From positions 80,304-144,303 of the forward strand of contig CAMOVK010000001.1 of the NCBI GenBank assembly GCA_946627325.1: a DNA stretch of 64,000 nucleotides, given 5' to 3'. Position numbers and translations under genes: made by a program. The DNA comes from an uncultured Prevotella sp. Its GTDB lineage: Bacteria; Bacteroidota; Bacteroidia; Bacteroidales; Bacteroidaceae. The notes below the pieces were generated by a model. It searched no databases. It saw only the letters and a program-made list of their open reading frames with translations, and was not told the DNA's origin. Every line of letters begins with the position of its first letter. Positions within the stretch are counted from its first letter, which is position 1. Positions 9,146 through 48,226 of this stretch are shown here, piece by piece.

Positions 9146-9233
9146 GGAAAGTATGCTTTTTCGGCTCGGAAAGTATGTCTTTTCAACTCGGAAAGCATAT
9201 CTTTTCGACTCGAAAAGACGTGCTTTCCAAATC
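9146..9233. repeat. array 1: four 22-bp palindromic units
   Basis: GGAAAGTATGCTTTTTCGGCTC / GGAAAGTATGTCTTTTCAACTC / GGAAAGCATATCTTTTCGACTC / GAAAAGACGTGCTTTCCAAATC. Confidence 0.93.
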
Positions 9234-9342
9234 GAGTTTGTAAACTGCTGAAAATCAACGGATAAAGAATCTGATTTGAGCAGAAATTATTTCCGGCAAA
9301 AAAAACATATCAACTTTCGGACAATAATCGGAAAACAATCAT

Positions 9343-21139: not shown

Positions 21140-21227
21140 GGAAAGCATATCTTTCCGATGCGAAAAGGCATGCTTTCCAAGCCGAAAAGCACGTCTTTCC
21201 AACACGAAAAGGATAGCTTTCCAAAAT
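21140..21227. repeat. array 2: four 22-bp palindromic units
   Basis: GGAAAGCATATCTTTCCGATGC / GAAAAGGCATGCTTTCCAAGCC / GAAAAGCACGTCTTTCCAACAC / GAAAAGGATAGCTTTCCAAAAT. Confidence 0.93.
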
Positions 21228-24228: not shown

Positions 24229-25146
24229 TCAGTTTTGAGTTTTATTGTTTTCTTGATTGTTTGGTTGTTTGTTTTGTTCTTGAGAGGTTGTTTCCTGCGA
24301 AGGAGTTTCTTCTGTCGCAGTCTGTTCGGTCAGTGTGTTTGTTCCAGAATTTTCGTGTTCATTGTTTCGTTTACAAATAATCTGGTTGTCGAATTCGATG
24401 TCTATATACTTATAACGTTGCCATCCCACCTTTGTCAGTCCATACCGATAGAATTTTTCGAGTCGCTCGAGTTTTACCTGAAGCATTTCTTCTATGGCTT
24501 TGTTTCTCCGTTTCGCATCGTTTATTTCGGGCAGTCTTCCTATTTTTACGATGTGGTTTCCTACTCTTGGTACGAGTTCAACGGACATATTTGGTAGTAT
24601 ATTGATTTGTTCTATTTGGTTTCTCCACAATTCGCTTGCCATGATATGCTTTGCGAGTGGTGTAATATATAGTCTTGCGTATCGTCTGTTTATTTTTCCA
24701 GTTGCTATTATTAGGTCTGAAGTATATTTTGAATTGGGCATGATTCCTCCTTTATCGTCTAAGTAGTAGTCGTCGGAAGAGTCGCTTTTGATTCTCACGA
24801 GCGGTGTTCGTTGTGTGATTTTTATATAGAATATTCCTCCTATTGTTTTGTAACATTCTGCTGTATTTACGAAAGGGGCTTCCTTCAGGTAGTCTTCTAC
24901 TTGTCTTGGGTCTATGCGTGTTAGTGGATTATTCTTTGGGAATAGTTGTTTTTCGTTCAGCATTTGTTTTATTTCCTCTGGTTTGAGGAATGCGTTTACG
25001 CTTTCATCTGCTATGTCGATTGCTACATTATTGCATAGTTTCCCGTCGTCTTTCGGGTTGTTGAAAGCCGTAATTGCGAGCAGCAGGTATATTGCCAGCA
25101 GGGTGTCGAGAGTGATTATTGATGTTTTTTTCCAGTTAATTTTCAT
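24229..25146 (-). CDS. ftsQ: cell division protein FtsQ
   Basis: N-terminal TM helix; QRTP...; located between murC and ftsA. Confidence 0.85.
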   Translation of the reverse strand: MKINWKKTSIITLDTLLAIYLLLAITAFNNPKDDGKLCNNVAIDIADESVNAFLKPEEIKQMLNEKQLFPKNNPLTRIDPRQVEDYLKEAPFVNTAECYKTIGGIFYIKITQRTPLVRIKSDSSDDYYLDDKGGIMPNSKYTSDLIIATGKINRRYARLYITPLAKHIMASELWRNQIEQINILPNMSVELVPRVGNHIVKIGRLPEINDAKRRNKAIEEMLQVKLERLEKFYRYGLTKVGWQRYKYIDIEFDNQIICKRNNEHENSGTNTLTEQTATEETPSQETTSQEQNKQPNNQENNKTQN

Positions 25147-25158
25147 CTATGTGCTGTG

Positions 25159-26529
25159 TCAGTGTTTTATATTTTTCATTATTTCTGGCATTTTCATGTC
25201 GAGGTCTCCTGCTCCGAGAATTACGAGTACGTCGAATTTGCGTTTTGCTACGTAATCTACTACTTTGTCGAGAGGTATTATTTCTCGTTTGATATCTGGT
25301 CTTAGGCAGTCGTATATGATTTTCGATGTTACTCCCTCGATTGGTTTTTCTCTTGCGGGGTATATGTCGGTAAGTACCACTTCGTCGAGTATGTTCAGTG
25401 CTTCTGCAAATTCTCGATAGAAGTCTTTTGTTCTCGAGTATAGATGTGGTTGGAATATCACTGTTATTGTTCTATCGTTATAGATTTGTCGGAGGCTTTT
25501 TGCACTTTCGAGTATTTCTTTTGGATGGTGTGCGTAGTCGCTTATCAGTACGAGTTCTGGTGTTTTTATTTTGAAGTCGAATCGTCGTTCTGCTCCTTGG
25601 AATGTTTTCATTCCGTTTTTCAGTTCATCTGCATTGCATCCGACGAGTTGTGCCATTGCCATTGCTCCGATGCTGTTTTCGATATTGATTGGTATTGGCA
25701 GTCCGAGTTGTATGTTGCTGACCGACTCTATTGGGCTTACGAAATCGAAGCTTATTTCTCCGTTTTCGATGCGTATGTTTTCGGCATGGAAGTCTCCTTT
25801 GTCTCGGCTATATGTGTATAGTGTCACTCTTTCTGCCAGTCGAGGTTTCATTTCTACTCCTTCTCTCATGATGAGTGCTCCTCCTGGTCTTATCAGTGAT
25901 GAGTAGTGAGCAAATCCTTCGAGATAGTTTTCCTTTGTTCCGTAGATGTCGAGGTGGTCTGGGTCGGTCGAAGTGATTACTGAAATGTATGGGTGCAGCC
26001 AGTGGAATGATCGGTCGTATTCGTCGGCTTCGATTACTACATAATCGCTGTCGGATAGTATGTAGTTTGTTCCATAGTTTTTTGATATTCCTCCGAGGAA
26101 TGCGTTGCAATCGATATGGCTTTGATGTAGAATATGTGCGCACATTGTTGATGTGGTTGTCTTTCCATGTGTTCCGGCTACGCAGAGTGCTTTATGTGCG
26201 TCGGTCAGTCGTCCGAGTACCTGTGCTCTTTTTTCGATGTAGAATCCTTCGCGTCGGAAGTATTGTAGTTCGGCATGCTCCTGTGGTACTGCTGGTGTAT
26301 ATACGACAAGTGTTGACTCTCTTTTTTTGCATTTTCTTGGTATAGCTTCTACGTTTTCTTCGTAGTGTATGTCGGCTCCTTCGTTTTGGAGTTGCATAGT
26401 GAGTTCGGTTGGAGTTTTGTCGTATCCAGCCACGACGAGTCCTTTATGCAAGAAGTATCGTGCTATGGCGCTCATTCCGATTCCTCCTACTCCTATGAAA
26501 TATACTGCTTTTATCTGATTGAAGTCCAT
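25159..26529 (-). CDS. murC: UDP-N-acetylmuramate--L-alanine ligase
   Basis: FIGVGGIGMS, AGTHGKTTT, EADEYD, DYAHHP, FQPHLYSRT. Confidence 0.97.
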   Translation of the reverse strand: MDFNQIKAVYFIGVGGIGMSAIARYFLHKGLVVAGYDKTPTELTMQLQNEGADIHYEENVEAIPRKCKKRESTLVVYTPAVPQEHAELQYFRREGFYIEKRAQVLGRLTDAHKALCVAGTHGKTTTSTMCAHILHQSHIDCNAFLGGISKNYGTNYILSDSDYVVIEADEYDRSFHWLHPYISVITSTDPDHLDIYGTKENYLEGFAHYSSLIRPGGALIMREGVEMKPRLAERVTLYTYSRDKGDFHAENIRIENGEISFDFVSPIESVSNIQLGLPIPINIENSIGAMAMAQLVGCNADELKNGMKTFQGAERRFDFKIKTPELVLISDYAHHPKEILESAKSLRQIYNDRTITVIFQPHLYSRTKDFYREFAEALNILDEVVLTDIYPAREKPIEGVTSKIIYDCLRPDIKREIIPLDKVVDYVAKRKFDVLVILGAGDLDMKMPEIMKNIKH

Positions 26530-26543
26530 TCTCTTTGGGTTGG

Positions 26544-27665
26544 TTATATGTTTGTTGTCATTCGTGCAAGTTTCAACACTTCGTCTGCGATTATTTCTGC
26601 TGAGTTTGGCAGTGCCATTGTCAGGATGTTTTCGGATAGTTTTTTGAGTTTTTCTTCGTCGTTTATTGTTTCCAGTGCGAGTTTGAGTAATTTTTCGGTT
26701 GCGCAGCAGTCTTTTACCATTAGTGCTGCCTTTCGGTTGACGAGTGCCATTGCATTCTTTGTCTGGTGGTCTTCTGCTACGTTTGGACTTGGCACTAGAA
26801 CTACTGGTTTTCCTATGAGGCAGAATTCGCTTATTGAGCTTGCTCCTGCTCTGCTCACGACGAGGTCGGCTGCTTGATAGGCTGCTCCCATGTCGGCGAT
26901 GAAATCTACCACTTTAAGGTTGGTTATCTCTCCGTATTCGGCTACAGTTTGTTTTACGGCTTGGTGATAGTATTTTCCTGTTTGTAGTATCACTTGCACG
27001 TCGGTTTGTTTTATTTCATCAAGGTGTTGTGTGATGCTTTCGTTGATTGTTCTGGCTCCAAGACTTCCTCCTACGAGCAGTAGTGTGCGACGTGCTGGGT
27101 CGAGTCCGAAACTGCGTATTGCTTCTTCTCTACTGAGGTTTGTCGTAATCAGTGATTGTCTGACGGGGTTTCCAGTGAGCAGTATTTTATCTTTTGGAAA
27201 GAATCTCTCCATACCTTCGTAGGCTACACAGATGCGTTTGGCTTTTTTTGCGAGCAGCTTATTGGTCACTCCTGCATAACTGTTCTGTTCCTGTATGAGG
27301 CATGGTATGTTCATTGCTGCAGCTGTATTGAGAGTTGGCCCACTTGCATAGCCTCCCACTCCCACTGCTACTTGTGGGCGAAATTCTTTCAGAAATCGGC
27401 GTGCCATTCGCTGGCTCTGCCATATTTTCCATAAGACTACAACGTTGCGGAGCAGGTTTTTGCGGTCGAAACCACAGATGGGCAATCCTATTATTTCGTA
27501 TCCTGCATCGGGTACTCGCTGCATTTCCATGCGCCCGAGTGCACCCACGAAGCGTATGTCGGCATCGGGACGCTTTGCCTTTATGGCATTAGCAATGGAT
27601 ATGGCTGGGAATATGTGCCCGCCAGTGCCGCCTCCGCTTATTACGATTCTCGTCTTTTCGCTCAT
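26544..27665 (-). CDS. murG: undecaprenyl-PP-MurNAc-pentapeptide N-acetylglucosaminyltransferase
   Basis: GGGTGGHIFP, GGYAS, EQNS, GNPVR, GGSLGA, SRAGA, HQTKNA. Confidence 0.97.
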   Translation of the reverse strand: MSEKTRIVISGGGTGGHIFPAISIANAIKAKRPDADIRFVGALGRMEMQRVPDAGYEIIGLPICGFDRKNLLRNVVVLWKIWQSQRMARRFLKEFRPQVAVGVGGYASGPTLNTAAAMNIPCLIQEQNSYAGVTNKLLAKKAKRICVAYEGMERFFPKDKILLTGNPVRQSLITTNLSREEAIRSFGLDPARRTLLLVGGSLGARTINESITQHLDEIKQTDVQVILQTGKYYHQAVKQTVAEYGEITNLKVVDFIADMGAAYQAADLVVSRAGASSISEFCLIGKPVVLVPSPNVAEDHQTKNAMALVNRKAALMVKDCCATEKLLKLALETINDEEKLKKLSENILTMALPNSAEIIADEVLKLARMTTNI

Positions 27666-27730
27666 GTTGGTTATCGTTTTACTTATCGTTAGTTTATCAA
27701 TTGGTTTTGTATGTCTATTCTTTCTGATTT

Positions 27731-27818
27731 GGGGAGATATGCTTTCCGTTGTGGGGAGATATGCTTTTCGACTTGGAAAGACGTGCTTTCCGATGCGAAA
27801 AGACGTGCTTTCCGAACT
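27731..27818. repeat. array 3: four 22-bp palindromic units (inside the dcw operon)
   Basis: GGGGAGATATGCTTTCCGTTGT / GGGGAGATATGCTTTTCGACTT / GGAAAGACGTGCTTTCCGATGC / GAAAAGACGTGCTTTCCGAACT. Confidence 0.92.
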
Positions 27819-27827
27819 CGTTTAGTA

Positions 27828-29117
27828 TCAGCCCGTTACAGACGCTGTATCTTCATCCTTCTTTTTTGCCCATAGGCTTACGCTTAATATAGCTCCGATG
27901 TATATGCAGTTGATGATTGTCGATGTTCCTCCTCGGCTGATTAGCGGCAGGGGCTGCCCTGTCACGGGCGCCAGTCCTACGGCAACCATCATGTTGATTA
28001 GTGCTTGGAGTGCTAAAAGCAGTGCTAATCCCATTGATAGCAGCGCAGGGAAGGTGTTCTCGCATCGATTGGCTATCCTTCCTACGCGGAACAATAGGAT
28101 TACGTATAGGAATGCTACGAATATGGCTCCGCCCAACCCCATCTCCTCGATGATGATAGCATAGATGAAATCGGAATATGCCTGTGGCAGGAAGTCGCGC
28201 TCAACACTATTACCTGGACCACGTCCTGTTATTCCCGACGAAGCTATGGCTATGCTCGAATGTCCCTCTTGGGCAAGCGAGTCGAGATTATAGTCATCAG
28301 GAGCGACCTCTGTTTTGACAAGAAACTTATTAAGTCGGTTTCGCCATGTTTTTGCTCTATGCAGTATGCTGCGGCTTTTCTTCTTCGAAGCGACCTTAGC
28401 AGCATCTGTGGCTTCGTTGGAATAGGCTTCAGCTATTACTTCTTGATTATCTGCCTGTGCCGTATCACTGCTCTCTGACTTATCGGCTGCAGCGGCAAGG
28501 AACATTCCGCCAATGATTAAGGCAATAGCTATAGTGCAAAAACCGAACAATTTCCCCAGCTGCGACATTGGAACCCTGCCTATAAACATCATTATTACCA
28601 CGACGGTAAACAATAACGCGGCTGTAGAAAGATTTTCCAATCCGATGGGCAAAATCAAACAGGCACTCATAATCAATATGTAAGGCATTGCCTTCTTGTC
28701 GGCTCCGTTTTCTGTTTGCATAGCACTCAGAATTTGAGCCACTGCCAATATGAGCGAACCCTTAGCTATCTCTGAAGGCTGAAACTGGAAAACACCTAAA
28801 TCAATCCATCGGCTACCCTCGTTGATGGTACTACCCATAATCAGCACCCATAACAATCCTATAATCGACAAACCAAGCAGAATGGGAGTGGCTATCTTGT
28901 AGTACTGGCAGCGAATGTTCATCACTATGACCGTACAAAGCCAGCCCACAGCAAAGATTGAAAAGTGGCGAATGATAGGACCCATATATCCCCGACTCTT
29001 ATAAGACAGTGAACTCGAAGCGCTATACACCTCGACTATGGAAATGATAAAGAGGAAAAAGAATACCATCCATATCACCTTGTCGCCCTTAAATATATTG
29101 TTTATTTTCTTACTCAT
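27828..29117 (-). CDS. ftsW: SEDS peptidoglycan glycosyltransferase FtsW
   Basis: RWI...FQPSEIAK, SDFIYAIIIEE, PVTGQPLPLISRGGTS. Confidence 0.95.
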   Translation of the reverse strand: MSKKINNIFKGDKVIWMVFFFLFIISIVEVYSASSSLSYKSRGYMGPIIRHFSIFAVGWLCTVIVMNIRCQYYKIATPILLGLSIIGLLWVLIMGSTINEGSRWIDLGVFQFQPSEIAKGSLILAVAQILSAMQTENGADKKAMPYILIMSACLILPIGLENLSTAALLFTVVVIMMFIGRVPMSQLGKLFGFCTIAIALIIGGMFLAAAADKSESSDTAQADNQEVIAEAYSNEATDAAKVASKKKSRSILHRAKTWRNRLNKFLVKTEVAPDDYNLDSLAQEGHSSIAIASSGITGRGPGNSVERDFLPQAYSDFIYAIIIEEMGLGGAIFVAFLYVILLFRVGRIANRCENTFPALLSMGLALLLALQALINMMVAVGLAPVTGQPLPLISRGGTSTIINCIYIGAILSVSLWAKKKDEDTASVTG

Positions 29118-29135
29118 GTATGTCGTGTGAGAGAA

Positions 29136-30473
29136 TTATAACAGGTTTCTGGCTAATGTCTTGAATTGCTCGCCTCTGTCTTCCATATTACGGAAGAGGT
29201 CGAACGATGCACAGCAGGGGCTTAGCAGCACCGTATCGCCTGGCTGAGCGAGCGAATAGCAGGCTTCGACGCAGTCTTTCATGTTGTTGGTGTCGCGGGT
29301 AGGCAGACCGAGAGAATCGAAAAAGTCGTGCAACTTGCTGTTGTCGGCTCCGAGATAGACCACTGCCCTGCACTTCTCCTTGACCAACTCGCGTATAGGC
29401 TCATAGTCGTTACCCTTGTCCTTACCACCTATAATCAGTATAGTTGGCGTCTTCATGCTCTCAAGTGCATACCAGCAGGCATCAACGTTGGTCGCTTTGG
29501 AGTCGTTGATAAACGTCACTCCACCTACTCGTGTCACGTATTCCAAGCGATGCTCTACACCCTTAAAACTGCTCAAAGCCTTGCGCAGGTCGTCCTTATC
29601 CACACCCGCAATGTTGGCAGCAATGCCAGCAGCCAGCGAATTGTAGATATTATGCTTACCTGTGAGGCTCAATTGCTCCTGCTCCATATTGAAGGGAGTA
29701 GGATATTCTATCTTATACTGACCTTCTTCAATGTAACCAATCACACCCTTGCGCTTAATTTCGGCAAACGGACAAACGGCTGCAGCAATCTGATACTTGT
29801 CTAACTCGCGCTGAATGATAGGATCATCAGCCCAGAATATGAAAGCGTCGTCAGACGTCTGATTGCGTATTATGCGCATCTTGGCATCAACATAGTTCTG
29901 CATCTCGCCTCCATAGCGGTCAAGATGGTCGGGAGTGATGTTCAGAAGAACGGCTATGTTGGCACGAAAGTCGTACATATTGTCGAGCTGGAACGAACTC
30001 AACTCTATGATATAGCAATCGTGTGGGTCTTCAGCCACTTGCAAAGCAAGCGAGCGACCTATATTGCCAGCCAGACCAACGTCGTAACCAGCATTGTGGA
30101 AGATGTGGTAAATGAGCGAAGTAGTAGTGGTCTTGCCGTTAGAACCCGTGATGCAAATCATCTTCGAGTTCGTATATCTACCTGCAAACTCTATCTCACT
30201 AATGATGGGAACACCTCTCCTTATAGCCTCTGCCACCATCGGAGCCTCGTCGGGAATACCCGGACTCTTGATGATTTCTTTGGCATTAAGAATAAAATCT
30301 GCAGTGTGCTGACACTCCTCCCACGCTATCTGCCGATCATCGAGCATTTGCTTATATCGTGGCTTGATTTGTCCCATGTCGGAAACAAACACATCGAAGC
30401 CTTCTTTCTTAGCTAAAACAGCAGCACCAACGCCGCTCTCGGCAGCACCAAGTATTACAATCCTATCGCTCAT
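29136..30473 (-). CDS. murD: UDP-MurNAc-L-Ala--D-glutamate ligase
   Basis: ITGSNGKTTT, ELSSFQL, NDSKATN, LLSPCCASFD. Confidence 0.97.
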   Translation of the reverse strand: MSDRIVILGAAESGVGAAVLAKKEGFDVFVSDMGQIKPRYKQMLDDRQIAWEECQHTADFILNAKEIIKSPGIPDEAPMVAEAIRRGVPIISEIEFAGRYTNSKMICITGSNGKTTTTSLIYHIFHNAGYDVGLAGNIGRSLALQVAEDPHDCYIIELSSFQLDNMYDFRANIAVLLNITPDHLDRYGGEMQNYVDAKMRIIRNQTSDDAFIFWADDPIIQRELDKYQIAAAVCPFAEIKRKGVIGYIEEGQYKIEYPTPFNMEQEQLSLTGKHNIYNSLAAGIAANIAGVDKDDLRKALSSFKGVEHRLEYVTRVGGVTFINDSKATNVDACWYALESMKTPTILIIGGKDKGNDYEPIRELVKEKCRAVVYLGADNSKLHDFFDSLGLPTRDTNNMKDCVEACYSLAQPGDTVLLSPCCASFDLFRNMEDRGEQFKTLARNLL

Positions 30474-30478
30474 ATATC

Positions 30479-31747
30479 CTATCTTATCTTCAGTGTTATT
30501 ATAGTCATAGCAGCCAGAATGATGCTAATAATCCAGAAACGAATGGTTATCTTAGACTCTGTAAACACATCCTTTGGTTTGGTTATCAGGTAATGGCAGT
30601 CGCTTTCAAGTTTTTCTTCCTCCATGCGAAAGTGGTCGTGGAGAGGCGCACGCTTAAAGATACGTTGCTTTCTACCGTGCTTCTTACCACGTTTATAATA
30701 TGCTACCTGCATCATTACGCTCAAACTCTCTACAAAGAACACTCCGCAGAGAATTGGCAACATCAACTCCTTGTGAATTATTATCGCACATACTGCAATA
30801 ATACCGCCTATCGTCAACGAACCAGTATCGCCCATGAACACCTGCGCTGGGTAACTGTTGAACCAGAGAAATCCAATCAACGCTCCAATGAAGGCACACA
30901 TAAAGACTACCAACTCTTGCGAGCCAGGAATATACATAATGTTCAAATACGACGCAAACTCAATATGCGAACTGACGTAGGCAAATATACCAAGAGCCAC
31001 GCCGATTATCGCACTATTGCCTGCACACATACCATCCATACCGTCGTTTAAGTTGGCACCATTACTTACTGCCGTCACTACAAAGATGGTCATTATCACA
31101 AACAAAACCCATCCTGCTGCCGTACTATGTTCACCCATGAAACCGACAACTCGAGAATAGTCGAGATTGTGACCTTTAACAAAGGGTATTGTAGTCTTCA
31201 ACGACTTCGACGGCTCTGAACGATGCTTAACAACAGTCTCCATTCCTTGACGCTCAATGGCGATATTTTCGTTGATTTTAGCATCGGGACTTGCCCACAA
31301 GACTAAACCAACAATAAGTCCAAGACCTACCTGACCTATGATTTTGAACTTCCCACGAAGACCATCCTTCTTGTGGCGGAATATCTTTATATAGTCATCA
31401 AGCCCTCCCAGCACTCCAAGCCACACCGTAGTAATTATCATTAACAACAGGTAGATGTTGCGCATACGACCCAACAACAATACTGGGACAAGTATTGAAA
31501 TTATAATGATAACCCCTCCCATCGACGGAGTTCCCGCCTTCTTCAAGCCAAAGGGATCGATTGAATTTTTACGAGCGGTCTCGGTAATCTGCTTCTTGCG
31601 CAGTTCATTTATTGCCCATTTGCCAAAGTAGATACTAATGACAAGCGACAAGATAAGAGCTAACAAAGCCCTGAACGAGATGTAGCCCCAAATATGAGAG
31701 CCTGTCACACCAAATTGGTCTAAATATCTGAATAAATAGTATAGCAT
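30479..31747 (-). CDS. mraY: phospho-N-acetylmuramoyl-pentapeptide transferase
   Basis: GTPSMGG, DDYIK, NLNDGMDG, FMGDTGS, APLH. Confidence 0.97.
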   Translation of the reverse strand: MLYYLFRYLDQFGVTGSHIWGYISFRALLALILSLVISIYFGKWAINELRKKQITETARKNSIDPFGLKKAGTPSMGGVIIIISILVPVLLLGRMRNIYLLLMIITTVWLGVLGGLDDYIKIFRHKKDGLRGKFKIIGQVGLGLIVGLVLWASPDAKINENIAIERQGMETVVKHRSEPSKSLKTTIPFVKGHNLDYSRVVGFMGEHSTAAGWVLFVIMTIFVVTAVSNGANLNDGMDGMCAGNSAIIGVALGIFAYVSSHIEFASYLNIMYIPGSQELVVFMCAFIGALIGFLWFNSYPAQVFMGDTGSLTIGGIIAVCAIIIHKELMLPILCGVFFVESLSVMMQVAYYKRGKKHGRKQRIFKRAPLHDHFRMEEEKLESDCHYLITKPKDVFTESKITIRFWIISIILAAMTIITLKIR

Positions 31748-31757
31748 AATGTTCTGT

Positions 31758-33230
31758 TTAATTATTGAATATCTCTGTAACTACTTCCTTATCGTCGAAA
31801 TGGTGCTTCACTCCCTGTATCTCCTGATAGTCCTCATGACCTTTTCCTGCAATTAGAATTACGTCGCCACGACTGGCAAGCATCACAGCTGTGCGTATCG
31901 CCTCACGACGATCTGTCACGATTAGAGTCTTCTTTCGCTGTTGAGGCGTTAACCCTGCAACCATGTCGTTGATAATTTCTTGAGGGTCTTCGAACCTCGG
32001 ATTGTCACTTGTGAGAATAAGTTTATCGCTCTGGCGAGCCGCCTCGGCTGCCATCAAAGGGCGCTTACCCTTGTCGCGATTACCTCCAGCACCACAGACA
32101 GTGATGATTTGCGGACGCTCAGCAGTGCCCCTAACACGGCTATCTACAACCTCGCCTATAGCAGAAAGCACATTGCTCAACGCATCGGGAGTATGAGCAT
32201 AATCGATAACTGCCGTTACTCCTTCCTTAGAATGAACGGGCTGCAATCTGCCACTGACACTCTTCAGTGTGCTCATCACTACCAACACATCGGCAGGAGA
32301 TTTACCTAAGCTGACAGCGGTACCATAAACAGCAAGCAGATTGCTTACATTGAACTTACCTATAAACTGCACTCCGACCTCTTGACCATTGATTTCGAGA
32401 TACATTCCTTCAAAGTGACACTCGAGAATGTGTGCCTTGAAATCCGCCATCTTACGCGTAGAGTAGGTTTTGACAATGGCTTTGGTGTTTTGAACCATGA
32501 ATACTCCGTTCTTATCGTCAGCGTTAATGATGGCGAAACTGCCCTTTGGCAACATGTCGAAAAACATCTTCTTGGCATCGCGATAAGCCTCAAAGGTCTT
32601 GTGATAGTCAAGGTGATCACGTGTAAGGTTGGTAAACACACCACCTGCAAATGTCAACCCGCCTATTCGCTGCTGGTGTATCGCGTGAGAGGAACACTCC
32701 ATAAAGGCATATTCACATCCGCGTTCCACCATCGAAGATAGTAGTTTGTTAAGTTCGATGGCGTCTGGCGTAGTATGATCGGCAGGTATAGCATCGTCGT
32801 CGATATAGTTGCAAACGGTTGAAAGCAGCCCACAATGATGTCCCATCTGTCGGAACATATTGAAGAGTAGGGTCGCTATCGTAGTTTTTCCGTTTGTCCC
32901 TGTCACACCGATTAATTTAAGATGCTTTGATGGATTGCCGTAAAATGTAGTGGCAAGAGTGCCTACAACGTCTTGAGTGGAATCCACCTTGACGTAGGTC
33001 ACATCGTCTTTCCGCATTTCAGGTATATCTTCGCAAACAATGGCGGCAGCTCCGTTGTTCTCGGCTTTATCGATAAACTGATGCCCATCAGTCATTGTTC
33101 CGCGCATTGCTACAAAGAGATGCCCCTTGTCTATGCGTCGAGAATCAATGTTTATGCCTGTTATTTCTCTATCGAGAGAACCAAATACGGCAATGGGATT
33201 GATTTTTCCTATGATTTGTTTAAGTGTCAT
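31758..33230 (-). CDS. murE: UDP-MurNAc-dipeptide--meso-DAP ligase
   Basis: [38 protein letters not shown]. Confidence 0.97.
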
Positions 33231-33383
33231 TTGAAGTTATAGGATTATCGTTTATTAGTTTTTATGTTGCTCTTTCCAATCGTTGGTTTTGTTATTTGCT
33301 TTTATTTATTTTACTATTTGTTGTCTATACTTATATAATATAATAATGTACGCGAGAATGTTCAACTATTGTTTGGTGATGTT

Positions 33384-35525
33384 TTAACCCAATTCGAGTA
33401 TGCATTTTTCTCCTTTTTTTATTTTGTTTCCTGCGTTAATGCTTTGTCCTTTCACTTTTCCACGTCCCCTAATCAGCACCTTTACTCCGCGACTCTCTAT
33501 AATATATACTGCGTCGCGTGCTCCCATGCCCATCACATTGGGCATTATTTCATCACTACAATCGGATTTTTGGATTATTTTTATCGTTTTATTATTGTCA
33601 GCGACGGCTTCTCCCCATACGTTTTGCTCATCGTTCTTGTATCGACTCCGTCCGCCTTCTGTTTTAAATCCCAAAGAGGAAAGCACATAGTCGGCTGCGA
33701 GCATATTGCCTGTTTTCACTTCGGGCATCTTCAATTTGTCATGCACCTGTATGTCTGCGATGCTCTGTTTTATGTTTTGTGCCATGATTCCCTCTGCTAT
33801 TCGCTTTGCAACAGCGCCACTATGAAGTCCGCCCGATGCAGGTAAACCGCTTTTTTGTATGCAAACGATAACGCTATAGCGCGGTTTGTCTGCGGGGAAA
33901 TATCCTGCAAAACTTACTAAGTAACCTGTCTTTCCGCTGCTATTCCATATCTGTGCCGTTCCCGTTTTTCCAGCCATAGCGAATGCTTTAGGTCGAGCGG
34001 CTTTACCTGTTCCTTCGGTAACCACTTTTGCGAGCAATGTCTGTATGATTTTAAGTGTCTGATCTTTGCAGATTCTCTCTCTCATAACCTCTGGCTTTAT
34101 GCTATCGGTTACTTCTCCGTCCTTAATGATTTGCTTTATAAATCTTGGCTGCATCATTCTGCCGTTGTTTGCGATAGCATTGTAGAATGTAAGTGTTGAT
34201 ATTGGGGGCACTTGCGTTTCATATCCGATACTCATCCAGGGCAGTGCCGTTTTGCTCCAGTTGACGTATTGTTTGCCTTTTTTGTCTTTTTGTGGCATTC
34301 TTATTTTTGCTGGTGTTGCTCCGTTGATTGGTATCTGCAGGTTATCAGCCAGCCCAGTTTTATAAATTCCTTCTATGAAACGCTCTGGATTTGAGCCGTA
34401 GTATTTGTCGATGATATAGCTTATTCCTATGTTTGAACTGACCTTTAGAGCTTTTGCGAAGTTTATTGTTCCATATCCGCCTTTTCTCCAGTTGTGGTCT
34501 TTCATGTCTCTCCCGTGCATTTTCATTATTCCTCCGCCTGTATTTATGAGTGCGGTGGTGTCGCACACTCCGTCGTCGAGTGCAACCATCATTGAGGCTG
34601 TTTTGAACACAGAACCTGGTTCCATGAGGTCGCTGACAGCGTGGTTTCTTACTTCACGGTATTCTCCATCGCTGCATCGTTCGAGGTTTACTATGGCTTT
34701 CACATCTCCAGTTGTTACTTCCATAACGATAGCCACTCCTACATTTGCTCCTATGTCAACCAACATGTCTTCGAGGCATCGTCCTGCAAGGTCTTGCATG
34801 CCGACGTCGAGAGTTGTAACAATGTCTGATCCGTCAACGGGGTCTATGTCGGCTATATTAAGAAATACGTTTCTCACCTTTCTTCTGTGTTGCAATCCTG
34901 GTGTTCCACGTAGTAGTGAGTCGTAGAAGAGTTCGAGACCGTATCGTGCGGAGTCTTTTCCTGGATATAGGTCGCCTATGGTTCTGGAAGCCAAGTCGCC
35001 GAATGGTCGCTGACGTGCTGTGATGTCTTCAACGTGAAATCCGCCCCTGTATGGTGTAAGGTTGAATACTGGCAGTTTCTTTACACTCATGTATGTGTTG
35101 TAATCAACTCGTTTTGGCCAGATTTTCCAGTTCATGCTTTTCCTCTGGCGTCCTTCTTCGAGGTGGTCTTTGAATTCTTGTGCTGATTTTTCGGGAAAGA
35201 TTTTGTGTAGTCTTTCGCATATTACATCTACGCTGTCGCACCATAATGAGTCTTTCATTTCACCTCCTGCTTGAAAGTCCATATACAACACATACTTTGG
35301 CAGCGAGCTTGAGAGTAGTTGCATATCGCTGCTAAAGATATTTCCCCTTTGTGGTTTTATTCGTATTGAGTCAATCCTTTTTTGCTGTGCCACTGTCATC
35401 CAATAGTCGGCTTTTGCTGTCATTTTATGGAAAGCCTTAACGACCACAGCTACTGCTCCTATAGTTATCAGTACGGCTATGAGAGTGTAGCGTGGCATTA
35501 TTTTGTTGTAATTAAACTTACTCAT
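33384..35525 (-). CDS. ftsI: FtsI / class B penicillin-binding protein with PASTA domain
   Basis: EPGSVFK (SxxK), SSN, KTGTAQ; C-terminal MPNVMGM PASTA domain. Confidence 0.93.
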   Translation of the reverse strand: MSKFNYNKIMPRYTLIAVLITIGAVAVVVKAFHKMTAKADYWMTVAQQKRIDSIRIKPQRGNIFSSDMQLLSSSLPKYVLYMDFQAGGEMKDSLWCDSVDVICERLHKIFPEKSAQEFKDHLEEGRQRKSMNWKIWPKRVDYNTYMSVKKLPVFNLTPYRGGFHVEDITARQRPFGDLASRTIGDLYPGKDSARYGLELFYDSLLRGTPGLQHRRKVRNVFLNIADIDPVDGSDIVTTLDVGMQDLAGRCLEDMLVDIGANVGVAIVMEVTTGDVKAIVNLERCSDGEYREVRNHAVSDLMEPGSVFKTASMMVALDDGVCDTTALINTGGGIMKMHGRDMKDHNWRKGGYGTINFAKALKVSSNIGISYIIDKYYGSNPERFIEGIYKTGLADNLQIPINGATPAKIRMPQKDKKGKQYVNWSKTALPWMSIGYETQVPPISTLTFYNAIANNGRMMQPRFIKQIIKDGEVTDSIKPEVMRERICKDQTLKIIQTLLAKVVTEGTGKAARPKAFAMAGKTGTAQIWNSSGKTGYLVSFAGYFPADKPRYSVIVCIQKSGLPASGGLHSGAVAKRIAEGIMAQNIKQSIADIQVHDKLKMPEVKTGNMLAADYVLSSLGFKTEGGRSRYKNDEQNVWGEAVADNNKTIKIIQKSDCSDEIMPNVMGMGARDAVYIIESRGVKVLIRGRGKVKGQSINAGNKIKKGEKCILELG

Positions 35526-36105
35526 TTCCGATGTTAATTATGTATGGAGGTTGTTGTGATATTTTTAGTGTTGTGTCGTTGTTGTTTTTTAGTTGTTCGA
35601 GCACATTGCTTTCACGCGACAGTTCAGTCAGTTCGCTTGATATTGATAGTGCTTTATATCTTGAGTTGACCAGTTGTTGTTTGAGTCGGGCTATGTCGAT
35701 TTGTTTTTGCTGGCAGCTGTACCTGTTTGTCACGTAAACGATTGTGAACATAACTATTATCAGTATTAGCAGAATCTGTCTTCTAACGAGATGGGCTGAT
35801 AGTATATCACCACCGAGAATTTTTGCCAGAGTGAAGTATCTTGATGCAGGCTGCTCGTCTTCTCGTGCGTTTTCCTTTATGACATTCTTCAGTTCTTCGA
35901 GGTCTTGCTTTTTTTTCTCGTCGATTATTTCTTCTTGCGAACTTGCTTCCTCGTCGTTGGTTTCCGATGGTTGGCTGGTCATTTCGCTTGATTGCTGTTC
36001 GTTGTCTGCATCGACTTCAGTATTTTCGGCAGCACTCGTTTCGGTGTTGTCATCAGGAGTTTCCTTTAGGCTTTCGTCTTGATGTATGTCGTTTTCTATG
36101 TTCAT
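35518..36105 (-). CDS. ftsL: FtsL-like cell division protein with acidic N-terminal extension
   Basis: ILGGDIL plus TM helix plus coiled coil; between rsmH and ftsI. Confidence 0.8.
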   Translation of the reverse strand: MNIENDIHQDESLKETPDDNTETSAAENTEVDADNEQQSSEMTSQPSETNDEEASSQEEIIDEKKKQDLEELKNVIKENAREDEQPASRYFTLAKILGGDILSAHLVRRQILLILIIVMFTIVYVTNRYSCQQKQIDIARLKQQLVNSRYKALSISSELTELSRESNVLEQLKNNNDTTLKISQQPPYIINIGNE

Positions 36106-37022
36106 ATTTTTTCTGCTATTCTCAATTTCGCGCTTCTTGAGCGTGGATTTCGTTGTATTTCGTCGTCATCGGGCGTAATGACTTTGTTGTTTATCATTTT
36201 CAGCGGTGCTTGTCGGCGACCGTAGAAGTCGGTTTCGAGTTTTCCTTCTGCATTTCCCGAACGTATATAGTTTTTCACTATTCTGTCTTCGAGTGAGTGA
36301 TATGTAATGACCGACAATCGTCCTCCTGTCCGAAGCAGGTTTGTAGCTGCCTGCAGCATTTCCTTTAAGGCAGTCATTTCGTCGTTCACTTCTATTCTCA
36401 GTGCTTGAAACAATCGAGCGAGGTCTTTTTTTTCTCGGTCTTTTCCGATGTGCTTTTCGACTACTTGTGCGAGTTGTTGTGTGGTTTGTATTGTTGTTTT
36501 CTGTCTCTCTTGACAGATTGTTGCCGCCAGTCGGCGTGCTTGCCGAAGTTCGCCATAGAGGTAGAAGATGTCGGCGAGCTGTTGTTCAGAGTATCGATTC
36601 AGTATCTCTGCGGCAGTCATTCCTGCTCTTGCGTTCATGCGCATATCGAGTGGAGCGTCTTGCCTGAACGAGAAACCTCTACTGAAGTCGTCGAAGTGGT
36701 GCGATGACACTCCGAGGTCGGCTATCAGTCCGTCGATATATTCCTCTTCGTAGTAGCGCATCCAGTTGTGCAGATAGCGAAAGTTGGTACGCACAAAGAT
36801 AAAGTTGCCTTTTTTATTGCTAAACTTTGCATTTCGTTCTGCATCGGCGTCTTGGTCGAGACCGTAAAGTCTGCCTTCTGACGACAGGTTTTTCAGTATT
36901 TCCTGAGAGTGGCCACCGCCTCCAAAAGTGACGTCAACATAGACGCCCTCTGGCTTTATCGCTAACCCGTTGACGCTTTCTTTGAGCAGCACGGGCGTGT
37001 GGTAGATGTTGTCGTTAGTCAT
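36102..37022 (-). CDS. rsmH: 16S rRNA (C1402) N4-methyltransferase
   Basis: HTPVLL, DVTFGGGGHS, DLGVSS, PLDMRM, NPRSRSAKLR. Start set at the ATG at 37022, which overlaps the mraZ stop. Confidence 0.96.
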   Translation of the reverse strand: MTNDNIYHTPVLLKESVNGLAIKPEGVYVDVTFGGGGHSQEILKNLSSEGRLYGLDQDADAERNAKFSNKKGNFIFVRTNFRYLHNWMRYYEEEYIDGLIADLGVSSHHFDDFSRGFSFRQDAPLDMRMNARAGMTAAEILNRYSEQQLADIFYLYGELRQARRLAATICQERQKTTIQTTQQLAQVVEKHIGKDREKKDLARLFQALRIEVNDEMTALKEMLQAATNLLRTGGRLSVITYHSLEDRIVKNYIRSGNAEGKLETDFYGRRQAPLKMINNKVITPDDDEIQRNPRSRSAKLRIAEKI

Positions 37023-37482
37023 TTGCGGCTGGTTCGTTGCTGTCTGCCATGAGTTGTTCGATGGCATTGCTGAATTCATCGTCGCCGACAAATGGGGCTT
37101 CGGCATTCTGTTTACTCCATATCTCGATGGTGTTTCCCACACCGATGAATACAATCTCTTGCTCGATTTCAGCCATTGCGAGATAGCGTTTAGGTATGAG
37201 GAAACGTCCGTTACCATCGAGCGTGACCTCAATCGCTTCTCTAACAAATTGTCGGAAGATGTTTTGCTGGTGTTTGTTCCATCTATTCAGCCTACTGCGC
37301 AACGCATCTTCCTGCTCGTTCCAAACGCTTTGGGGATAGAGAACCAGACAGTTTTGAAAGATATCTTTTCTTAACATCAGACTCTCTTCGCCTGCTGTTT
37401 GCAGCACGCGGCGGAAAGTCGAGGGCAGAAAAGCTCTTCCCTTCGTATCTGTCTTGGCTTCTATGTTTCCGAGAAATCGCAT
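37015..37482 (-). CDS. mraZ: transcriptional regulator MraZ
   Basis: DTKGRAFLP, LDGNGRFLIP, IEIW; first gene of the dcw cluster. Confidence 0.95.
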   Translation of the reverse strand: MRFLGNIEAKTDTKGRAFLPSTFRRVLQTAGEESLMLRKDIFQNCLVLYPQSVWNEQEDALRSRLNRWNKHQQNIFRQFVREAIEVTLDGNGRFLIPKRYLAMAEIEQEIVFIGVGNTIEIWSKQNAEAPFVGDDEFSNAIEQLMADSNEPAAND

Positions 37483-37578: not shown

Positions 37579-37847
37579 ATTTTCATATTTTCTAAAATTT
37601 AACTTTCGTTTACTTTTCAACGAATTAACGAAACTTATTTTTACATATTCTCGCTCAAATCGATTGTTTTGTTAATATACCTTTTATTTGTTAAAAACGC
37701 AAGCTAAAAGAAACCTTATTTTTGAAAACTTCCAGAATAAACTCTTAAAAATAGCGATTTTTGACTCAGAAAGCCAAACGTCTGATTATCAACACTTAAG
37801 CTTTAGATATTGAAAAATCGCAGAATAAAGCGAGAGATATTAAACTG

Positions 37848-38001
37848 CAAAAGATACATCTTTCAAGGCGCAAAACCGACTTATTTGAATGTTGCCACAA
37901 GTGTTTTGACACCGAAAAATCATACTTTTCAAAACGAATACATATGCTTTCCGACTCGGCGAGCACGTATATTTAAGTCGAAAAGCATATCTTTTCGGCT
38001 A
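37848..38001. repeat. array 4: degenerate 22-bp units (4 recognisable, up to 7 in phase)
   Basis: From 37914: GAAAAATCATACTTTTCAAAAC / GAATACATATGCTTTCCGACTC / GGCGAGCACGTATATTTAAGTC / GAAAAGCATATCTTTTCGGCTA. Also CAAAAGATACATCTTTCAAGGC at 37848, exactly 66 bp earlier. Confidence 0.75.
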
Positions 38002-48138: not shown

Positions 48139-48226
48139 GGAAAGCATATCTTTTCGCATCGGAAAGCATGTCTTTTGGACTTGGAAAGCACGTCTTTCCA
48201 AAACGAAAAGACGTGCTTTCCAAAAT
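48139..48226. repeat. array 5: four 22-bp palindromic units
   Basis: GGAAAGCATATCTTTTCGCATC / GGAAAGCATGTCTTTTGGACTT / GGAAAGCACGTCTTTCCAAAAC / GAAAAGACGTGCTTTCCAAAAT. Confidence 0.93.

Follow-up and report, generated by a model that had tools for sequence, protein, structure and literature searches.

Palindromic arrays lie at the centres of mirror-image zones of strand-biased composition in a Prevotella genome

The 64,000-nucleotide stretch considered here, referred to as the window, comes from the genome of an uncultured Prevotella species and carries five copies of an intergenic element of approximately 83 bp, which we call the array. In this genome the arrays are found at the centres of mirror-image zones of strand-biased composition, of which they are either the cause or a marker. 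On both sides of an array, the strand that runs away from it is rich in A and C, and the strand that points 3' toward it is rich in T and G. The bias was first seen around array 3, which interrupts the division and cell wall (dcw) cluster of the window. The reading that we tentatively favor for its origin, to which we would assign slightly less than an even chance, is that DNA is broken or nicked around the arrays, after which strand removal in the 5'-3' direction and resynthesis give rise to the zones.

A change of strand composition within the dcw cluster

The window is G000:C1:80304-144303, where G000 denotes the source genome, a 1.42-Mb assembly in 54 contigs that is 73% complete and in which 1,079 genes were called with a custom open reading frame (ORF) scorer. 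NCBIfam matches support ftsZ, ftsA, murC, murG, ftsW, murD, mraY, murE, ftsI, rsmH and mraZ, all on the minus strand, and agree with the gene names given in a first-pass annotation of this DNA. The names ftsQ and ftsL rest on position, and the ftsQ-like gene has no NCBIfam match at 1e-20. The MurD protein of the window is 72-80% identical to records from Prevotella and other Bacteroidaceae, and a five-protein tree of 79 loci places G000 on a long branch among Prevotella loci.

The first-pass annotation had described a flip in strand composition at array 3, inside a co-oriented operon, from six hand counts of G+T per 60 nucleotides (42, 40, 22, 27, 28 and 48), all of which were exact on recount. 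A least-squares fit over 24,229-33,230 places the change point at 28,128, and its bootstrap 95% interval (27,171-28,254) includes the array at 27,731-27,813. The switch is a ramp over approximately ±1.5 kb rather than a step. The return crossing, at about 33,387, is gradual and falls near the midpoint of arrays 3 and 4, where there is no array. A contig from an independent run covers 26,486-28,167 with eight differences and no gap, and the array junction is therefore not a misassembly.

It had also been noted that murC uses A/C-ending codons and its paralogues murD and murE more T/G-ending ones. The contrast itself is real, but in this genome the change at fourfold-degenerate sites is almost entirely one of T versus A, with G and C hardly moving, while in the twofold families T/C and G/A do move. 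The fourfold sense-strand counts are A127/C39/G16/T10 in murC, A24/C52/G37/T69 in murD and A57/C56/G36/T77 in murE (Fisher p of 5e-27 for murC against murD and 7e-20 for murC against murE); codons are taken as independent here, as in all the p-values and z-scores given below, such that per-array counts are the safer measure. The plus-strand silent-site residual is -0.39 to -0.50 over 24.5-27.0 kb, the region of the ftsQ-like gene, murC and murG. Subtracting the fourfold AT skew of murD from that of murC gives +1.34 in this cluster, as compared with a mean of -0.09 (standard deviation 0.23, maximum +0.56) in the dcw loci of 80 relatives, and the relatives without an array between ftsW and murG show no jump. 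Within the dcw cluster the flip tracks the position of the array, which is the ftsW-murG gap in G000 and the murE-mraY gap in the related locus L048.

Strand-biased zones across the genome

Throughout G000, 66 of the 67 arrays that have 4 kb on both sides flip the silent-site skew in the same direction. The mean flip is 0.39, and in 10,000 gap permutations the mean was 0.13 and the maximum 0.25. Together with the change point at array 3 and the relatives that lack the jump, this supports the earlier proposal of a mutational process that is local, strand-asymmetric and centred on the array. Gene orientation, which had been dismissed as an explanation on the strength of the dcw cluster, can indeed be set aside, since array gaps of all three kinds flip: the means are 0.37 for co-oriented (n=26), 0.25 for convergent (n=15) and 0.46 for divergent gaps (n=20), against -0.10 (n=88), -0.11 (n=19) and -0.09 (n=36), respectively, in gaps that have no array within 3 kb.

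Genes that read away from the nearest array at a distance of 1-3 kb have fourfold frequencies of 0.45 for A and 0.14-0.17 for T, whereas those that read toward it have 0.22-0.25 and 0.30-0.36, and plus- and minus-strand genes are mirror images of each other relative to the arrays. At twofold sites, T is 0.28 away versus 0.50 toward and A is 0.74 versus 0.49. The shift extends to all synonymous families and all 12 flanking-base contexts (log ratio 0.96-1.81), to amino-acid usage, with K, N, T and I higher on the away strand, and to intergenic DNA at 1-2 kb (A 0.367, T 0.283). That synonymous families, amino acids and intergenic DNA all shift together fits mutation rather than codon selection.

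From near zero at the array the skew rises to a peak at approximately 2.2 kb and then fades, with nothing left of it by 6-7 kb even where the interval is long. On 187,387 sites, a fixed-range additive kernel (sum of squared errors (SSE) 139,785) fits better than a sawtooth scaled to array spacing (140,875) or the null (144,059); two kernel fits reached degenerate parameter values (the d*exp limit), and only shape and SSE are used. Whichever replichore orientation is inferred, the two sides of an array are equal (-0.16/+0.15, n=11, and -0.20/+0.20, n=14). Skew on the scale of the chromosome is weak (root mean square 0.03-0.06), and the array-linked skew is about five times the replichore skew.

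A matched filter blind to the arrays returned 62 flips. The nearest scored array is no more than 1 kb away for 49 of these and no more than 2 kb away for 56. One further flip lies on a degenerate array missed by the scan, and five have no array within 2 kb, although for three of these there is one within 2.5-2.9 kb. Flips at C1 ~30,000 and C7 ~10,600 (z of 8.2 and 7.2) are more than 10 kb from any array and are candidate sites of lost arrays. The one array of the 67 that departs from the common direction, at C2:62103, is intact and has the opposite flip, with -0.31 on its right side; its neighbors on C2 are weak too, and a recent rearrangement or transfer is possible.

The array element

Each array consists of eight alternating half-sites, G(G/A)AAAG and CTTT(C/T)C, with an 11-bp period, which together form four imperfect 22-bp palindromes without overall polarity. 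G000 contains 93 arrays, compared with none in 1.59 Mb of local shuffles; most are intergenic and six overlap an ORF call. The DNA fold z-scores of the five arrays in the window range from -1.3 to -6.2. The arrays are spaced far more evenly than chance allows: the shortest of the 56 spacings that could be measured is 6.6 kb and their coefficient of variation (CV) is 0.45, whereas in 5,000 trials of random placement in 291 gaps the minimum never exceeded 2.8 kb and the CV never fell below 0.55 (typically 0.80). Divergent gaps hold 30 of 84 arrays and make up 86 of the 291 gaps overall. All 46 full-length arrays are distinct, each a mosaic of a few spacer variants, as would be expected if copies recombine. 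A 12-half-site array at C25:342-468 has an exact internal 44-bp duplication, and so arrays can gain whole units.

The usual marks of mobile repeats were sought in the flanks of the arrays. At any offset from 0 to 7, three or fewer of the 46 arrays share a 4-mer, and no duplication of 5-9 bp occurs in more than one array, which leaves the arrays without a target-site duplication. No conserved leader or tail is present, the flanks sharing only a motif resembling a site for integration host factor (IHF) and 3-5 terminal bases. A GTAG/GTGG tag, which in repetitive extragenic palindromic (REP) sequences marks the foot of the palindrome, occurs in eight of 186 12-nucleotide flanks and CGTC, another REP tag, in one. 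The window gave no Rfam matches at the gathering score.

The sites that adjoin the arrays are called IHF-like with reference to WATCARN4TTR, which we take to be the IHF consensus. By this measure 55 of 91 arrays have a putative site at a fixed offset outside the array, usually on one side, with at least 12 of the 14 positions in agreement, compared with eight of 820 controls. The side that carries it has the same skew as the other (0.19 vs 0.21, n=45). Genes of the HU/IHF family are present in G000. In the related genomes G317, G321 and G426 the site is rare, being found at 2 of 46, 0 of 14 and 0 of 7 arrays, respectively. Degenerate arrays often have a more distant IHF-like site, and a further sequence resembling the consensus, off the usual register, is seen at 37,775-37,792 in the window, approximately 120 bp to the left of array 4.

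The array sequence is nearly private to the species: there are 141 matches in G000, 1-6 in six of 400 genomes of the genus and none in the rest, and no sister species with the same family was found (0 of 40 relatives). Among 40 metagenome loci with the strict motif, only L160 is close to G000. The other 39 (within L146-L185) come from other organisms, with at best 65-76% identity to G000, and so a similar family exists in at least one other lineage. The features of the window are collected in Table 1. Beyond these, the ftsQ-like gene (24,229-25,146) and the ftsL-like gene (35,518-36,105) have long A-rich, lysine-rich tails, as do those of several relatives.

Table 1. Arrays, candidate IHF-like sites and dcw gene groups of the window
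Feature	Position	Strand	Remarks
Array 1	9146..9228		Divergent dut-folP gap; DNA fold z -5.2
Candidate IHF-like site by array 1	9241..9258	-	Fixed register; 14/14 positions of the presumed consensus
Array 2	21140..21222		ftsZ-gyrB gap; closest pair of arrays in the genome together with array 3 (6.6 kb apart); right side flips weakly
ftsQ-like, murC, murG	24229..27665	-	Sense away from array 3; fourfold A 0.54/0.66/0.49, T 0.13/0.05/0.09
Array 3	27731..27813		ftsW-murG gap; eight half-sites, four imperfect 22-bp units; flip centre; DNA fold z -1.3, weakest of the five
Candidate IHF site by array 3	27826..27838	+	Exact match to WATCARN4TTR; overlaps ftsW stop codon; off the commonest register
ftsW, murD, mraY, murE	27828..33230	-	Sense toward array 3; fourfold A 0.33/0.13/0.23/0.25, T 0.24/0.38/0.35/0.34; + strand residual +0.08 to +0.38
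ftsI, ftsL-like, rsmH, mraZ	33384..37482	-	Sense away from array 4; + strand residual -0.20 to -0.31 over 34.0-36.5 kb
Array 4	37914..37996		Divergent mraZ-glsA gap; degenerate eight-half-site array; full flip nonetheless
Array 5	48139..48221		Co-oriented gap after dGTPase gene; DNA fold z -6.2

Arrays and flips in related genomes

Intergenic arrays with a period of 22 bp and unrelated sequence are common in the loci of relatives. Two related genomes, G317 and G318, show flips of the same polarity as G000 around arrays of different sequence at other positions. Both were picked for their oscillating dcw loci, and the DNA then tested, 390-450 kb per genome, lies for the most part outside the discovery locus; the clade of G317 (support 1.0), a Bacteroidaceae lineage, is separate from G000 in the tree. 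When one method is applied to all genomes, the per-array flip is 0.40 in G000 (59 of 65 positive), 0.34 in G317 (36/44) and 0.14 in G318 (38/51), with weaker positive values in G319 (0.11, 8/11), G321 (0.08, 10/13) and G429 (0.11, 4/4). No flip is seen, despite the presence of arrays, in G426 (0.03, 4/7), G322 (-0.04, 6/17), G431 (-0.09, 2/8), G432 (0.00, 6/8), G323 (0.03, 4/6), G435 (-0.01, 2/4), G434 (0.00, 3/5) and G430 (-0.06, 1/7), where for G431, G323 and G430 the dcw locus overlapped the fetched stretches and some arrays are counted twice. G436, G437 and G320 have only 0-2 testable arrays.

A first sign that arrays do not always carry the effect came from the 80 dcw loci, in which 13 of 21 pooled arrays have positive flips. 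Array families, defined from sequence, also differ within a genome: the flip of the main family compared with the others is 0.50 (n=29) versus 0.16 (n=13) in G317 and 0.23 (n=38) versus -0.07 (n=12) in G318. The flip-negative genomes that bear arrays and these differences between families indicate that arrays are insufficient, and that a factor specific to the lineage and to the family is needed.

Several further observations concern the arrays of relatives. The slightly negative means of G431, G430 and G322 come from small samples and would be compatible with a weak opposite effect. The zones of G317 reach approximately 3 kb, with arrays 2-6 kb apart in parts, and those of G000 approximately 6 kb, with arrays at least 6.6 kb apart, such that range and spacing seem to scale together. 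The fetched stretches of G321 and G319 (L186-L205) contain many unrelated 22-bp families per genome (most of the 14 arrays in G321 differ) and flip only weakly; in G426 and G322 a single family dominates and flips are absent. Finally, in L048, L049, L056, L032 and L044 the murE-mraY gap (at ~8.5-8.6 kb, or 4.2 kb in L032) holds a 22-bp array in each case, with five different sequences. Either the sequence has been replaced in place with the period kept, or the gap has been hit repeatedly.

Comparison with known repeats

The nearest class of element is that of REPs and the bacterial interspersed mosaic elements (BIMEs) built from them, even though the tests for the tag and for a RAYT transposase fail. 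As described in the parts of PMC2817692 used here, these elements share with the arrays an intergenic location, around 100 copies, short palindromic units, a mosaic structure and species-specific sequence. They also have an IHF-type site nearby, to which the IHF-like site of the arrays may correspond, and BIMEs bind gyrase and REPs bind Pol I. In BIME-1 the IHF site lies between REPs. The arrays differ in having no GTAG-type tag, no linker (the 22-bp period is strict), no RAYT that could be found, an IHF-like site that is outside the array, and regular spacing. The literature searched yielded no description of skew domains on the flanks of BIMEs.

Within the Bacteroidales, the nearest repeat is BrickBuilt of Porphyromonas gingivalis, a minisatellite-type member of the miniature inverted-repeat transposable elements (MITEs). 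From what is given in the main text of PMC4596501, it too is intergenic and dispersed, with imperfect tandem units of about two helical turns. BrickBuilt units are 23-nucleotide direct repeats in 1-23 copies, contained within MITEs with a leader, a tail and terminal inverted repeats, of which there are 19 copies, whereas the array is a fixed four-unit quasi-palindrome that has neither leader, tail nor target duplication. The word "skew" does not appear in that main text.

Origin of the strand bias

In the mechanism that we favor, the DNA would be broken or nicked at and around the array, and the strand with its 5' end at the array would be degraded outward for a few kb and then re-made. The opposite strand, either single-stranded or used as a damaged template, would lose A and C, with single-strand deamination (C>T and A>G) as the presumed chemistry. 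A sequence-specific protein would read the dominant array family, and gene conversion between arrays would shuffle their units. Our leading guess for the enzyme that cuts would be a topoisomerase of type II, for which the array would serve as a BIME-like site. Outward removal of the 5'-ended strand would account for the sign, the symmetry, the range and the fact that fork direction plays no part. A and, at twofold sites, C are indeed lost from the strand pointing 3' toward the array. Moreover, the spectrum of substitutions on the G317 branch, obtained by parsimony at sites near saturation, has a C>T rate of 0.31 on the toward strand (n=367) versus 0.17 on the away strand (n=464), a ratio of about 1.8, with G>A at 0.25 (n=253) versus 0.45 (n=274) and T>C at 0.27 (n=88) versus 0.43 (n=87).

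A precedent is provided by human meiotic hotspots, defined by PRDM9 and SPO11, for which the portions of PMC7615360 consulted describe 5'-3' resection that leaves the strand pointing 3' toward the break single-stranded, such that to the left of the break it is the forward strand that is exposed. Their centre is symmetric and their flanks have off-centre C>N and A>N peaks (section 4 of that paper gives no side for each class). The features in common with the arrays are thus a sequence-defined centre, the absence of asymmetry at the centre itself, a mirror strand asymmetry over kilobases, and loss of C and A. Mirror asymmetry with C and A lost from the 3'-overhang strand, which is what marks a break-and-resection hotspot, is found at the arrays. 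In contrast, the hotspots are eukaryotic, programmed and transient, with a reach of 1-2 kb, whereas the arrays are bacterial, fixed, intergenic and evenly spaced, with a reach of approximately 6 kb in G000, and their breaks are something that we infer.

A number of results weigh against a break-based origin. Eight sampled genomes with similar arrays are flip-negative, including G426, which lies inside the flip-positive clade. The array at C2:62103 has the opposite flip, and flip size is independent of array integrity (rho 0.10, p 0.37, n=78). Fourfold G and C barely move in G000, where pure C>T plus A>G deamination predicts otherwise, and on the G317 branch, which is the source of the polarised spectrum in place of G000 itself, the A>G excess is weak and present in only one of two site classes. 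Near to and far from arrays alike, identity to relatives at fourfold sites is 0.44-0.47, a level near saturation at which no strong rise in total rate is visible. A Y1/RAYT transposase (PF01797), matched in nine of 20 genomes, was not found in the incomplete genomes G000, G317 and G318, nor in G426, and sbcD was not found in G000, G317, G318, G319 or G321, all likewise incomplete (73% for G000). The lack of RAYT and sbcD in the strongest flip-positive genomes removes the simplest version, in which a hairpin is cleaved.

The main rival, which we regard as unlikely although it deserves serious attention, dispenses with breaks. Here the arrays would be loading or anchoring sites for a chromosome-organising or repair protein, with domain boundaries approximately 10 kb apart, from which an outward-tracking enzyme repairs or shields the away strand, and the array may only mark the site. 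The strong under-dispersion of the arrays speaks for it, as do the fixed number of four units, the helical period and the fixed offset of the IHF-like site, the last of these being offset by its absence or rarity in G317, G321 and G426. That total divergence does not rise and that degenerate arrays keep full flips would also follow, and on the G317 branch the away strand seems to have less C>T than do sites far from arrays (0.17 vs 0.22), a difference that can, however, arise by reversion under saturation. We know of no bacterial protein that acts in this manner. The arrays could alternatively be features of replication, either many small origins or two-way barriers at which forks meet. The 22-bp units with an IHF-like site do resemble iteron origins, dnaA was not found in G000, and chromosome-scale skew is weak. 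Iteron origins are made of direct, non-palindromic repeats with a cognate Rep initiator; the array units are quasi-palindromic. However, dnaA is intact in G317, G318 and G319, its absence from G000 is uninformative at the completeness of that genome (rplB is missing too), and a weak global skew is also seen in the flip-negative G322. In G322, the strand with dnaA, rplB and all three 5S rRNA genes is T/G-rich, such that, with fork co-orientation assumed, its leading strand is T/G-rich and the sign at arrays, whose away strand is A/C-rich, is opposite to that of an origin. Replication strand asymmetry and multi-origin skew, in the material taken from PMC3269012, do share with the arrays a T/G versus A/C bias ascribed to deamination of single-stranded DNA, and many polarity changes per chromosome. 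As the skew at arrays is zero at the element, has a fixed range that does not scale with spacing, and is several times stronger than that of the replichores, we consider a replicative origin distinctly unlikely.

We give little credence to the suggestion that arrays are species-specific uptake or cut signals for transformation, in which DNA enters 3' end first, leaving the toward strand single-stranded before integration over a few kb. The sign is right, and even spacing, private sequence and a family-specific effect would all be accommodated, but known uptake sequences are short and present in thousands of copies, and here several array families coexist in one genome. The gene comEC is present in G317, G318, G319 and G321, but flip-negative genomes have it as well, for a total of 16 of 20, and a search of G000 did not find it. 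There is only a slim chance that selection is responsible, favoring a strand-specific composition or a short polar motif within a few kb of arrays to guide a translocase. The effect is very large, as the fourfold A:T ratio of 127:10 in murC illustrates, and the codons pointing away from arrays slightly outnumber those pointing toward them (86,592 vs 64,711); against this, the shift is seen in every one of the 12 flanking contexts, to which the motif search was limited, as well as in synonymous families, amino acids and intergenic DNA. Ordinary transcription or expression, through promoter-proximal codon usage or position in the operon, is largely refuted and to be given almost no weight. The arrays are intergenic and many are in divergent gaps, yet this share is little above background, convergent and co-oriented array gaps flip while array-free divergent gaps do not, and across 80 relatives the average for these genes is flat.

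Several narrower candidates were tried and rejected. Loss of a repair gene does not account for the flip, as ung and mutS are each present in 19 of 20 genomes, including all the flip-positive ones, and DUF6261 was found in three of 20 genomes, none of them flip-positive. Matches to a dif-like motif are at control level. Conjugative nicking, strand displacement and outward transcription would expose the away strand, which is the wrong sign. A search for transfer-shared genes between G000 and the fetched parts of G317-G319, all partial genomes, gave only housekeeping genes among the top 25 of 250.

Taken as a whole, the phenomenon fits none of the families tested, and its mechanism is one that we infer. 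No report of array-centred skew domains in bacteria was found in a literature search that was thin on subscription papers and did not cover supplements.

Significance

Strand bias in bacteria is normally explained by a single origin plus transcription, and here a third, local source comes in addition. With about five times the strength of the replichore skew, this source affects most of the chromosome and goes with an element of 83 bp that can be defined. It is also the first measurable consequence found for the widespread and unexplained 22-bp arrays of Bacteroidales. Since genomes can be divided by the flip into active and inactive ones, comparing them offers a way to look for the reader or nuclease. 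In such genomes, inferences on codon usage, on expression and on horizontal transfer are confounded by distance to the nearest array.

Going further, it is possible, though this is a more doubtful proposition than breakage around arrays as such, that these elements form a bacterial grid, in which a self-spacing array every ~5-13 kb is read by a lineage-specific protein and the DNA is routinely opened and processed in both directions, giving programmed break or recombination hotspots in some gut Bacteroidales. If that were true, the footprint of the hotspot grid would override the biases of replication and codon usage, setting synonymous and even amino-acid usage gene by gene.

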